Source: Thermofilaceae archaeon
GTDB taxonomy: Archaea > Thermoproteota > Thermoprotei > Thermofilales > Thermofilaceae
Length of the DNA stretch: 64,000 nucleotides
Direction of reading: 5' to 3'
Assembly (NCBI GenBank): GCA_038861545.1
Contig: JAWCCZ010000004.1
Span: 128,001-192,000 of the forward strand
Below, piece by piece: positions 11,189-48,026 of this stretch. Position numbers and translations under genes: made by a program. The notes beneath the pieces are model-generated. The model ran no database searches. It saw only the letters and a program-made list of their open reading frames with translations, and was not told where the DNA came from. How positions within the stretch are numbered: the stretch's first letter is position 1; every line of letters starts with the position of its first letter.

Positions 11189-11241
11189 CAGGGAATTGTA
11201 AGAACTGATTCTAAAAAACTATTGATGAAAGGCCCACTCCC

Positions 11242-11396
11242 TTCGAACCGGGGGCCTACCGGTTCACACCCGGCCTTTACCGGTGTCGACCGGCTACCGC
11301 GGTATCATTCAGCGCACAGCGCAGTCTCCGCGGGCAACCAGCTACAGCCGGCCGCTCTACCGCTGAGCTACGCGGGGCTTGGTCCCCGCGCCCGGA
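11242..11396 (-). tRNA. Permuted tRNA-Tyr(GUA): 3' part (nt 60-76) at 11396-11380, 5' part (nt 1-59) at 11377-11242, intron(s) at 37/38 (11341-11264)
   Basis: Reconstructed mature tRNA CCCCGCG TA GCTC AGCGGTA GAGC G GCCGG CT GTA GA CCGGT AGGCC CCCGG TTCGAA/T CCGGG CGCGGGG A CCA; C1-G72 and A73 Tyr identity; complementary leader (11412-11397) and trailer (11241-11231) form a BHB at 59/60. Confidence 0.93.
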
Positions 11397-11433
11397 ATCC
11401 CGGGAGCAGGCCATTTCCCTTTAATTGAAAGGG

Positions 11434-29635: not shown

Positions 29636-30880
29636 TTACCCCCTTACCATGTTTTTAACAAATTCCTTCAAGAGAAACAAGTCTCTAATGTAGACAAACT
29701 CGTTTTCCGAGTGAACGTTGCAATCTGATCTTATAGCCCCGAAGGCTACTACGGGTATTCCAGCTTCGAAAAAAAACGTTCCGTCATTACCCCCTAGTTC
29801 AGCTGCTGTCGGAACTTTGTACTCTAACCCTCCGGCGGCGTAGGATTTCTGTGCAGCTTCGACAGCCTCGTCTACTAAGTCTTTATCCAGCGTGTACCAA
29901 CCCCTTTGTCCCCAGGCTTTGATCTCGGCTTCAATTGCTAATCGTGCTGTGGCCCGCGAAAAGTATGAGTACAATTCAGTTAATGCTTCTTCCATATCTT
30001 CCTCTGGGAGAAGTCTAACGTCGAAACCTAGCAGAACCTCCGAGGGTACACGATTATGTTTTTCGGGTTCGCCAGGCCCTAGTTTAGTTATAGTGATGCT
30101 AAAACGCCCCCACACTTTTTGAAACGGTGAGTCTGGTGGAGAATTGTAACGTGAAATCTTTGAAAAACGAACTGATTTGTACTCTTCTAGGAGGATGTTA
30201 GCGAGTTTAACAGCAGCTTCAACAGGGTTAACGGTTTTATGCGGGTATCCTGCGTGCCCAGATCTGCCCTTCACTTTAATCCATCCATGAATTACGCCGC
30301 TAGCACCCACTGAAACATACTCGGCTCCAGCGTCAAGTATCACTGCTTTATCCCATCGATACCCTTCCTCTAAGACTGCCCTAACCCCGTAACCACCGAC
30401 TTCCTCATCGCCAGTCACCACTATGCAGGGTCTATACCTGAGCTTATCGCCGGCATTAGCGAGTTCGGCGAACGCTGCAATACTTGCTACTATTGCGGAT
30501 TTATCGTCTGCAGCTCCTCGACCATACACCCTATCTTTACATACAAAAGGCTCGTAAGGGTCTACTGAATGTCCTTCAACATACCATGGCCCACGAGTTG
30601 GGACAACATCGTAGTGACTTACTAGTGCTAAAGTCCTGCCGCTACCTTCAACCTCAATGAAAACCGTAGGTATAATGCCACCTCTATATTCAAGTTTAAT
30701 GAGTTCCGCGCTTAATCCGACTCTTTCTGCTAACCCAACTACCGCCTCAGCAGCTTCCATGTAGCTACTTCGTATAACATCCCCCTTATCTGATACCGAG
30801 ACTTCTGAGCGAATCCTAACCAATCGGCAGAGCTCTTCAACTAAATCGATATTCACGCATCCGAGAGTACGGTGAGTCAT
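29636..30880 (-). CDS. M20/ArgE-DapE family metallopeptidase
   Basis: SHYDVVP, GRGAADDK, DEEVG, HSENE. Confidence 0.88.
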   Translation of the reverse strand: MTHRTLGCVNIDLVEELCRLVRIRSEVSVSDKGDVIRSSYMEAAEAVVGLAERVGLSAELIKLEYRGGIIPTVFIEVEGSGRTLALVSHYDVVPTRGPWYVEGHSVDPYEPFVCKDRVYGRGAADDKSAIVASIAAFAELANAGDKLRYRPCIVVTGDEEVGGYGVRAVLEEGYRWDKAVILDAGAEYVSVGASGVIHGWIKVKGRSGHAGYPHKTVNPVEAAVKLANILLEEYKSVRFSKISRYNSPPDSPFQKVWGRFSITITKLGPGEPEKHNRVPSEVLLGFDVRLLPEEDMEEALTELYSYFSRATARLAIEAEIKAWGQRGWYTLDKDLVDEAVEAAQKSYAAGGLEYKVPTAAELGGNDGTFFFEAGIPVVAFGAIRSDCNVHSENEFVYIRDLFLLKEFVKNMVRG

Positions 30881-30952: not shown

Positions 30953-31046
30953 GGGCCGGTAGATCAGGCTGGGAGATCGCCCGCCTTGCAAGCACTTTAA
31001 CAACCAAGTACGCGGGAGGTCCCGGGTTCAAGTCCCGGCCGGTCCA
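30953..31046 (+). tRNA. tRNA-Ala(UGC) with 20-nt intron at 37/38 (30991-31010)
   Basis: G3-U70; anticodon 30987-30989; relaxed BHB/BHL (CTTG/CAAG); exons differ from Ala(CGC) only at positions 32 and 34. Confidence 0.95.
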
Positions 31047-33999: not shown

Positions 34000-34536
34000 A
34001 TGGACCCAAAGACAATCGCAAATATTTCACTTTTTACCGCTCTTGCAGTGTCATTTAGGCTTCTAAAACACGTGATAGCAGGAGCCTTTCAGCTAGTTAA
34101 TTTTCCCTTATCCTTTGCTATGATTGCCGGCTATTTTTCTGGATCGCTGGCAGGCATGCTAACCGGCGCGCTATCCTTCTACTTAAGCGATCTTTTACTC
34201 GGGCTAGGCCCATGGACTTTAGTTAACTCTACGCTAGCAGCTGGTATTGGAGCTGTTTGGGGAGTGCTTCGTAAAAGCCGCTCCATGGGGTGGCCTCTCT
34301 TCATCTTAGCTTTTATTTCAACCTTCGCATACGACGTTCTCTCTTCCTTCCTCCTCTATATGTTGTTCATACGGGAAACTTGGTATGCATTAGTTTACGC
34401 ACTTATAGGTTTATTTCTCCCTAGTATGGGTGGCTATATGGTGGGAGTAGGCCCTATAACGGAGACATTGACAGCTGGAGTTACCACCTTAGTTATTTCC
34501 AGGGTAAGAAAAGCCTTTGGGACAGAGAAATTTTGA
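34000..34536 (+). CDS. ECF transporter S component
   Basis: ISLFTAL, LSDLLLGLGPWT, multiple TM helices. Confidence 0.75.
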   Translation: MDPKTIANISLFTALAVSFRLLKHVIAGAFQLVNFPLSFAMIAGYFSGSLAGMLTGALSFYLSDLLLGLGPWTLVNSTLAAGIGAVWGVLRKSRSMGWPLFILAFISTFAYDVLSSFLLYMLFIRETWYALVYALIGLFLPSMGGYMVGVGPITETLTAGVTTLVISRVRKAFGTEKF

Positions 34537-46991: not shown

Positions 46992-48026
46992 TTACCCTAT
47001 TGCCTTCTTGGCCAGTAATCGCATTAAAGCCTCCACTTGTGGCTTCAGTGGCTCAGGTATTTTTTTCACGCCCAGTTCGAGAAAACCTCGAACTAGAAGG
47101 GTCGTAGCCTCTTCTTCAGTGAAACCTTTAGACATTAGATACCCTAACTCCTCCTCTGATATTTTACCAATGGCAGCCTCATGCGTTAGTTGTGACCCGC
47201 CGCTAAGCGAGCGGAGAACGGGAACTGTCTCCACATAGGCGTCTGGAGCTACCTGTAGGCTACGACACTCTATATGTCCTCTCGTACCAGCTACTCTTGC
47301 CTCAATCTCCGCTGGTAAACTTATATAGCTCCCTCTACCGGCTACTATCCTAGACACTATTTCTCCTATGCTTCCCTCCTCTGCTAGAACTATGCTAGAG
47401 CTCAGTATGGATTTAGAATTAGAACCTGCGACGTAGATTGTTGAAATTGAAGCTGAGGCCCCTTTCTCCAGTTTAGCTCTAGTTGTTGAAGAAATAGTTG
47501 TTGGAGACCTGAGACACGTATACAAATAATCGTAGTTGGAATCCCTTTCGGCAATAACCCCTTTTTCTGCTACCACTTCAGTCTCCTTCATCCAACTATG
47601 CGTCATAAAGTAATGCAACTTGGCACCATAACCCAAGAAAACCTCGGTATAACCCTCATGGGTTGTGCCGGAATTCACACTAGAGCAAGCTGAGGTCAAA
47701 GTGACTTCGCTACCCCTATCGACAACAATTATATTATGAACTTTTTGTGAACCTTCACTTACGACGAAACAGAGCGTTAAAGGTACGTAAATTTTTACGC
47801 CAGAAGGTATGTAAACAAAAGCTCCATTTTCTTTCATTTGTCTTTCTGGTAGAGCTGTCCAAAGTAGTTTCTTTACCCAATCTCGGTTAATGGCCTTGCT
47901 AAGCGGCTCCAAGATGAAACCTTTAGAAGCTAAGCTATCAGCTACTACCTGTCGTATAACTTCATAGTTTCTTTGCAAATATACCGCTGCACCCCCAGAT
48001 TTCAGTATCTCAGCTACAATGTTCAT
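46992..48026 (-). CDS. sufB: SufB/SufD (SmsB-like) Fe-S assembly protein
   Basis: QKVHNII, RGHIEC, LTHEAAIG, YLMSKG. Confidence 0.88.
   Translation of the reverse strand: MNIVAEILKSGGAAVYLQRNYEVIRQVVADSLASKGFILEPLSKAINRDWVKKLLWTALPERQMKENGAFVYIPSGVKIYVPLTLCFVVSEGSQKVHNIIVVDRGSEVTLTSACSSVNSGTTHEGYTEVFLGYGAKLHYFMTHSWMKETEVVAEKGVIAERDSNYDYLYTCLRSPTTISSTTRAKLEKGASASISTIYVAGSNSKSILSSSIVLAEEGSIGEIVSRIVAGRGSYISLPAEIEARVAGTRGHIECRSLQVAPDAYVETVPVLRSLSGGSQLTHEAAIGKISEEELGYLMSKGFTEEEATTLLVRGFLELGVKKIPEPLKPQVEALMRLLAKKAIG

Follow-up and report, generated by a model that had tools for sequence, protein, structure and literature searches.

We propose that the intron at position 37/38 of pre-tRNA-Tyr is an atypical H/ACA-type guide that directs pseudouridylation of U35 (Psi35) on its own precursor. 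This reading was drawn from analogy with known guides and from the geometry of the intron; we put its probability at roughly 0.6, and it is the best-supported mechanism for the element. That the intron structure is real and selected can be stated with a good deal more assurance, and we regard it as highly probable.

The gene concerned lies on the minus strand of the window, by which we mean the whole 64-kb stretch of DNA that was analyzed. It is a permuted tRNA-Tyr(GUA) gene, in which the 3' piece of the mature tRNA precedes the 5' piece. The following parts were assigned by reading the sequence directly.

11231..11412 (-), whole permuted pre-tRNA-Tyr(GUA) unit: leader, 3' piece, 2-nt linker, 5' piece with intron, trailer
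11380..11396 (-), mature tRNA 3' piece: U60, T-stem 3' strand CCGGG, acceptor 3' strand CGCGGGG, A73 and CCA
11342..11377 (-), 5' exon, tRNA positions 1-37, with G34 at 11345, U35 at 11344, A36 at 11343 and G37 at 11342; also a weak Rfam tRNA match (5' half)
11264..11286 (-), intron remainder: ACA, second hairpin and 3' splice region GUGUGA/A, with length and sequence varying among relatives
11242..11263 (-), downstream exon piece, kept in relatives: A38, anticodon stem 3' strand CCGGU, variable loop AGGCC, T-stem CCCGG and T-loop UUCGAA (to position 59)

The 3' piece complements both the acceptor strand CCCCGCG (11377-11371) and the T-stem strand CCCGG (11252-11248), and the leader and trailer of the unit are able to pair. 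The intron spans 11341-11264 (-), 78 nt at position 37/38, and the second hairpin in its tail is formed by ACACCGG/CCGGGUGU. This layout is that of the homologous permuted tRNA-Tyr of Thermofilum pendens, which was described by Chan et al. with an intron at 37/38 (PMC3218864); a related locus in our set (L009) has the coordinates given in that paper. ARAGORN reported no other tRNA-Tyr in the genome, which leaves the permuted gene as the sole tRNA-Tyr.

The intron and the adjoining exon bases can form a K-turn hairpin whose two flanks pair with the tRNA part of the same transcript. Its components, in the 5' to 3' order of the RNA, are as follows.

11345..11354 (-), target strand, tRNA C25-G34, with 10-bp complementarity to the 3' flank; the core 28-34 is paired in nearly all relatives
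11343..11344 (-), U35 (proposed target) and A36, which, as follows from the flanking helices, are the only unpaired bases at the three-helix junction
11334..11342 (-), 5' mini-hairpin ("5' guide" duplex), in which G37 and intron base C1 pair with GC at 11335-11334 around the loop UGGUU; the pair of intron base 1 covaries
11328..11333 (-), upper stem 5' strand CCGCGG, partner of 11302-11297; among relatives, compensatory changes are seen at each of the six pairs
11325..11327 (-), non-bulged strand of the K-turn, A plus GA; relatives have GA in about 32 of 40, AA in 6, UA in 1 and AC in 1 (counted by hand)
11310..11324 (-), C-stem hairpin of the K-turn, CUGCGC-UGU-GCGCUG, with one U.U and the loop UGU, as read from the sequence
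11303..11309 (-), bulged strand of the K-turn, AAU (3-nt loop), GA (sheared pairs) and UA; every relative with a K-turn retains U-GA
11297..11302 (-), upper stem 3' strand CCGCGG, partner of 11333-11328
11287..11296 (-), 3' guide UAGCCGGUCG, complement of tRNA C25-G34

Direct reading of the minus strand thus recovered everything that the earlier note had described here: the stem, the K-turn, both flanks and the free U35-A36. The 3' flank TAGCCGGTCG (11296-11287) pairs with C25-G34 (11354-11345) over 10 bp, two of them G.U, and is followed directly on its 3' side by an ACA at 11286-11284 (-). As a sequence motif the K-turn has the standard pattern, with the C-stem, AAU and GA on the bulged strand and, on the opposite strand, GA running directly into the C-stem. 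We take this strand orientation to be that of archaeal H/ACA RNAs. Every K-turn-bearing relative has a hairpin at the place of the C-stem, and its sequence and length vary.

The earlier note had placed the element in the setting of a permuted tRNA, a tie that did not survive comparison: it is evident by eye in the permuted and non-permuted tRNA-Tyr genes of the family alike. A DNA search of the family recovered the tRNA-Tyr gene in 18 of 23 genomes. A covariance model (R1) detected the element in 31 of the 41 genomes of the order, from 8 families, and gave matches in 48 of the 120 genomes of the class (E<=1); reading the sequences confirmed it in families f1-f12, which are 12 of the 15 families of the class. 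A second model (R2) matched 21 of 151 sampled genomes of the phylum, including 13 of the 15 genomes of one family that belongs to another class. The architecture recurs in 42 distinct tRNA-Tyr introns, with more copies outside the class, and wherever it was found it sits inside the 37/38 intron of the targeted tRNA.

The two flanks vary in length among these relatives. The core of the 3' guide, YAGYCGG, is near-invariant in the family and is reduced to CAG(C), 3-4 nt, in several other families; the 3' side of the guide pairing comprises 7-11 bp in most families, falling to 3-5 bp in others. The hairpin on the 5' side has 2-5 bp; most sequences have only 2-3 bp, and some families 0-1 bp. All 43 parsed rows have, as the first base of the flank, a pyrimidine able to pair with G34, and G37 faces C in 41 of the 43 by an anchor-based parse. 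Loss of the guide complementarity in relatives had been set down beforehand as a ground for abandoning the guide; the complementarity is conserved and covarying far beyond the family. In two large families of the class the hairpin, or a shorter version of it, persists with no K-turn, so the K-turn is dispensable there for splicing and for life. In families f14 (L076, L077, L079 and L082) and f15 (L106) the tRNA-Tyr introns have a stem at the same place, which carries an A-rich loop of 13-14 nt or a short one and lacks the K-turn; their 5' flank contains a conserved CAGC, for which tRNA 31-34 is a possible pairing partner. Genus g47 of family f23, in another class (L120-L122, L124 and L125), has GAUGU in place of GAUGA as its 3' K-turn strand, beside an 8-bp stem with a U.U; GAUGU may be a K-turn variant.

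Covariation was assessed in a 17-member alignment of the family and in a larger alignment (A2) of 43 rows, which holds the 42 distinct introns and one spurious reverse-strand match and which, being fitted to the model, leans toward the structure. In this model-fitted alignment the compensatory changes reach 6 of 6 upper-stem pairs, and 96% of the cells are paired, versus 21-48% with slid partners. Intron base 1 and its partner read GC in 17 of the 43 aligned rows, CG in 15, AU in 3, UA in 2, UG in 1 and other combinations in 3. The family alignment gave a stem that is 98% paired, with three compensating pairs, and an intron base 1 pair that is CG in 10 members, GC in 5, UA in 1 and UG in 1, and unpaired in none. 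The anchor-based parse of the flanks was made independently of the covariance model. It showed tRNA position 27 pairing with flank base 8 in 25 of the 28 sequences with a long flank, as G:C/U, U:A/G or C:G (table read by hand), and within one genus this pair switches between C:G and U:A. Because the stem, intron base 1 and position 27 all covary, the support extends to all three junction helices and not to the hairpin alone, and covariation, which the earlier note had named as a check, is present in both alignments.

The geometry of the element is that of an H/ACA pocket. Between the 3' GA of the K-turn and the pairing partner of G34 stand exactly 8 nt in 40 of the 41 parsed sequences (9 in the exception), whether the stem consists of 6+2, as in most lineages, or of 8 bp, as in others. 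These 8 nt and the two G.A pairs amount to 10 layers, the "GA stem" of H/ACA guides, for which a rule of about 10 layers has been described (PMC4652768). With this spacing present and U35-A36 free, the pocket geometry claimed in the earlier note stands. When the genome was searched under strict criteria for canonical H/ACA hairpins, with a lower stem of 8 bp or more, a pocket, a K-turn and ACA at 14-16 nt, three were returned, against 0 in five simulated genomes, and all three have the same 7-nt/8-nt K-turn stem layout as the intron. This search replaced an earlier permissive scan for K-turn hairpins, whose 118 matches fell mostly in coding sequence. The three are canonical single-hairpin H/ACA sRNA candidates on the plus strand of their contigs, with a lower stem of 8-10 bp, a pocket, a K-turn and ACA at 14-15 nt.

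G000 C1:~30652-30745 (+), canonical H/ACA sRNA candidate
G000 C1:~47068-47160 (+), canonical H/ACA sRNA candidate
G000 C4:~34151-34240 (+), canonical H/ACA sRNA candidate

The genome also encodes Cbf5, Nop10, Gar1 and L7Ae (Pfam families over cut-offs). With canonical H/ACA guides the intron has in common the K-turn motif, a GA stem of about 10 layers and a bipartite guide that leaves U35-A36 free, together with the four RNP proteins encoded in the genome; its 5' guide side is much weaker than in free guides. Canonical guides have a lower stem of 7-9 bp, and here we found no conserved pairing of the 5' flank with sequence 3' of the guide. A lower stem made by the 5' flank and the 3' guide was rejected as weak and not conserved: the mean energy of the exon:guide duplex is -14.7 kcal/mol, compared with -6.5 for the rival 5' flank:guide pairing, and the former is the stronger in 35 of 40 sequences. 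The earlier note had also pointed to an ACA downstream of the guide. The triplet is indeed there, but it occurs at +11 in this genus only, no ANA position is preferred among 40 sequences, and we rejected an ACA box as a functional signal since it is not conserved.

A box C/D guide was likewise rejected, no C or D box grammar being found around the K-turn. Neither CUGA 10-12 nt after the AUGA strand nor RUGAUGA 12 nt before the 5' GA occurs in the window's element or in its relatives, and the bases adjoining both K-turn strands pair with each other. The features that define atypical guides (PMC4652768, PMC11077068) are those seen here, namely a single K-turn hairpin, free guide flanks, no lower stem and no ACA. 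Such guides are independent small RNA genes that act in trans, and in this respect the element departs from them, lying within the intron of the targeted tRNA. By analogy, it would be an atypical H/ACA-like guide placed in cis, within the intron of its own target.

In the mechanism that we propose, L7Ae would bind the intron K-turn, and the 10-layer stem below it would set the distance to the pocket. The 3' flank would pair with tRNA positions 25/27-34, displacing the 3' strand of the anticodon stem, and the 5' flank would take up G37 and the first bases of the intron in a short hairpin. This would leave U35 and A36 at the three-helix junction, within reach of Cbf5-Nop10-Gar1, which would pseudouridylate U35. 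The precursor would subsequently refold to the anticodon stem and the bulge-helix-bulge (BHB) and be spliced, so that modification would precede splicing. The most general form of this proposal is that an ancient class of pre-tRNA-Tyr introns is its own H/ACA-type guide, recruiting L7Ae and Cbf5 to its own anticodon and switching between a modification fold and a splicing fold; we give it even odds. Several observations count against a guide: the very short 5' duplex, the 3' guide of 3-4 nt in several families, the lack of a lower stem and ACA, and a minimum free energy (MFE) structure that prefers other pairings. A long 3' and a short 5' duplex fit a guide, since pairing on the 3' side weighs more than pairing on the 5' side (PMC7075261).

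The guide fold occupies positions 27-34 and G37 and for that reason excludes the splice fold. It competes with the anticodon stem and with the BHB pairing, as the earlier note had supposed in treating the two folds as mutually exclusive. In relatives a downstream strand (GCAG, GUAG or GCGG), followed by 2 nt and A38, forms a 4-bp central helix with positions 32-35, and the anticodon-stem 3' strand comes next. The central helix of the window's gene is poor, with GUGU opposite CUGU giving three G.U pairs and one mismatch, which makes for a relaxed splice motif. In some families the flank is a CAG(C) beside a second CAG, and the two folds differ by a 3-nt slip; in one family (L053) the single CAG after the stem is itself the splice central helix. 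A second splice motif, in which the last four stem bases would serve as the central helix and the cut would fall inside CAG, was considered and is unsupported as a general feature, because GCGG is lost where the stem covaries (GUGU, GUGC) and many relatives have tails of only 7-11 nt; it may still apply in this genus. For the window sequence ViennaRNA gave an MFE of -45.7 kcal/mol, versus -36.1 kcal/mol when constrained to the guide fold; we judged this preference uninformative, as the non-canonical K-turn pairs and the proteins lie outside the energy model.

The proximity of the hairpin to the splice motif bears on a second explanation. The K-turn hairpin might be an L7Ae-bound structural or timing element that yields no pseudouridine and that either stabilises the intron helix near the splice motif at high temperature or holds the anticodon arm in a non-tRNA form until other processing is done. 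Such a role would suit a stem that lies directly 5' of the strand forming the 4-bp central helix, the post-stem CAG that is itself this helix in L053, the retention of a hairpin at the same place in the K-turn-less families, and an aPus7 enzyme that looks active. It leaves three features unexplained. The pairing of the flank extends to 27-31, in competition with the anticodon stem, and covaries at 27 all the same; the 5' splice site is buried by conserved pairs at G37 (G37:C) and at intron base 1; and the fixed 8-nt distance matches that of the H/ACA guides in the same genome. We consider a purely structural role unlikely.

The aPus7/TruD protein deserves closer attention, as the earlier note had asked whether it is absent or defective. 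It was found in 40 of the 41 genomes of the order and in 112 of the 120 of the class, and the gene of the window's genome is full length.

L068:195-1547 (+), the same as G000 C5:114994-116346, aPus7/TruD gene, with its motifs read

Its product aligns over its full length with the Methanosarcina mazei TruD structure and keeps the catalytic Asp (GLKDARA) and the Lys of motif IIIa. Lys or Arg is kept at this motif IIIa position in 21 readable aPus7 sequences of the class, a position occupied by Ile in the deficient Sulfolobus enzyme (PMC2651775). We found no link between the state of the aPus7 motifs and the K-turn intron across the class, a comparison from which loci that had yielded a wrong longest ORF were left out. 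Loss or damage of aPus7 as the rationale for a guide was accordingly rejected, since the enzyme looks intact, and for the same reason the logic of Sulfolobales, where a guide rescues a broken enzyme (PMC2651775), does not apply here. The context of U35, UGUAG, resembles the target context that is cited in PMC2651775 for yeast Pus7. A36 is required by aPus7 and not by an H/ACA RNP (PMC2651775). With aPus7 present, its active-site motifs kept and U35 in this context, a guide is not needed on present evidence; it may be that the guide and aPus7 routes duplicate each other, or that aPus7 acts on U13 alone, as it does in Sulfolobus islandicus. In five genomes of the two K-turn-less families, a search for a trans-acting Psi35 guide (TGA-N8-CAGCCGG) gave 11 matches, versus 42 for a reversed-pattern control, and no convincing hairpin among them. 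Motif II of aPus7 in the class is usually D-(A/S/T)-(R/K), where the aligned M. mazei TruD structure has D-K-R; Pyrococcus abyssi aPus7 has, at motif II, the two residues Arg-His (PMC2651775).

An H/ACA-like guide might also act in trans, the precursor or the excised and possibly circular intron working on another pre-tRNA-Tyr molecule or on another RNA such as rRNA. Covariation looks the same whether the same sequences pair in cis or in trans. For the box C/D guide in the archaeal tRNA-Trp intron, action in trans has been reported, and archaeal introns can persist after excision, both of which would favor action between molecules. A 5' duplex of 2-3 bp, however, would be negligible between molecules and is workable as a hairpin closed by a 3-5 nt loop. 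Across the genome the full target motif is present 8 times, where chance alone would give about 6, so that a different target in trans is unlikely; the 10-bp extension is found at the tRNA-Tyr site only. Covariation at position 27 further ties the guide to tRNA-Tyr itself, and on these grounds we think trans action distinctly improbable. We find it scarcely credible that the complementarity merely follows from CCGG palindromes and GC-rich sequence, with no selected structure: the region does contain six CCGG-containing words with many possible pairings and its predicted MFE fold differs from the guide fold, but the element is conserved from class to class and shows compensatory changes in each of three helices, and the excess of paired cells over slid partners and the weak, non-conserved 5' flank:guide pairing likewise speak against it.

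Our preferred reading, a guide acting in cis on U35, has its closest counterparts among the H/ACA RNAs of Sulfolobales, where Psi35 of pre-tRNA-Tyr is H/ACA-guided across the exon-intron border (PMC2651775; sR115 deletion, PMC11077068). The earlier note had cited intron-borne H/ACA motifs in Sulfolobales as a precedent; in fact the guides there are stand-alone, trans-acting H/ACA sRNAs, represented by Sso1, Sto1, Sac1, Mse2 and Ape7 (Sulfolobales and Aeropyrum pernix) and by sR115 of S. islandicus (PMC2651775, PMC11077068). They and the intron have in common the target, U35 of an intron-containing precursor, a K-turn in the upper stem, a 3' guide that reaches G34, a 5' guide to G37 and intron bases, and a free U35-A36. 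In contrast to these sRNAs, the guide proposed here lies within its own intron and lacks both lower stem and ACA, and aPus7 appears intact.

Crenarchaeota have guides that lack a lower stem and ACA, namely sR203-sR210 of Pyrobaculum and sR109, sR136, sR148 and sR563 of S. islandicus (PMC4652768, PMC11077068). The S. islandicus RNAs are proven guides that work in vivo and in vitro, and sR148 works with its 3' guide only (PMC11077068). In sR563 and sR109, Cbf5 modifies the RNA itself at uridines that lie 5' of its own hairpin and are paired with its own 3' guide (PMC11077068), which is the topology proposed for the tRNA-Tyr intron. The atypical guides resemble the intron in their single K-turn hairpin, the roughly 10 layers from the GA pairs to the pocket and their single-stranded guide flanks. 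They are free sRNAs directed mostly at rRNA, whereas here the element is part of a pre-tRNA, its cis target lies 5' of the hairpin and the 5' duplex is closed by a short loop.

Two further systems modify pre-tRNAs with the help of an intron. The tRNA-Trp intron of Euryarchaeota carries a box C/D guide (Haloferax volcanii; Clouet d'Orval et al. 2001, as cited in PMC4090602). As far as that citation describes it, it resembles what we propose here in being an intron that binds L7Ae through K-turns and modifies its own anticodon arm before splicing; it differs in using fibrillarin/Nop5 for 2'-O-methylation of C34 and U39 through C/D'/C'/D boxes, an arrangement of which nothing is seen in the tRNA-Tyr intron. 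In eukaryotes, Psi35 of pre-tRNA-Tyr is made by Pus7 in an intron-dependent manner (as cited in PMC2651775). According to the account given there, Psi35 is likewise made on the intron-containing precursor and requires the intron, but the enzyme is protein-only and the intron acts through the structure of the precursor, with no RNP guide.

A full-text literature search, which did not cover Bernick et al. 2012 (RNA 18:402), turned up Psi35 guides of the H/ACA kind that act in trans, atypical H/ACA RNAs and the box C/D guide of the tRNA-Trp intron, and returned no H/ACA-type guide inside a tRNA intron. If the proposed mechanism is true, this would be the first pseudouridylation guide located inside a tRNA intron and directed at the tRNA that carries it; the only known comparable intron-borne guide is that of tRNA-Trp, of box C/D type. 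It would give a function to a tRNA-Tyr intron that is widely kept across a large part of Archaea and would tie together the intron-dependent Psi35 of eukaryotes, the Psi35 guided in trans by H/ACA RNAs in Sulfolobales and the minimal atypical H/ACA RNAs. The intron would be an RNA-guided counterpart to the eukaryotic intron dependence of Psi35 and a simple RNA switch that orders modification before splicing, and the free Psi35 guides that act in trans in Sulfolobales could plausibly descend from it. The guide reading is directly testable in cultured T. pendens with existing reconstitution and Psi-mapping methods.

For annotation, the permuted tRNA-Tyr gene is one that tRNA finders miss, both ARAGORN and Rfam at gathering score. 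In its default mode ARAGORN reported no tRNA genes in the 64-kb window, and the Rfam covariance models gave no family match to the intron, only weak tRNA-derived matches, none of them at gathering score for the tRNA-Tyr gene. Rfam also gave a weak match to YrlA (Y RNA-like) at 11350-11412 (-) of the window, at 24 bits and far below gathering; it is an artifact of the permutation, as the T-arm/acceptor/D-arm order mimics the tRNA-like module of YrlA. At L010 (G003:C4), ~1457-1560 of the minus-strand read, the non-permuted tRNA-Tyr of a member of the family has an extra intron in the region of the D-arm besides the K-turn intron at 37/38. The sole Rfam tRNA match at gathering score in the window lies at 30953-31046 (+) and, being 94 nt long, contains an intron.
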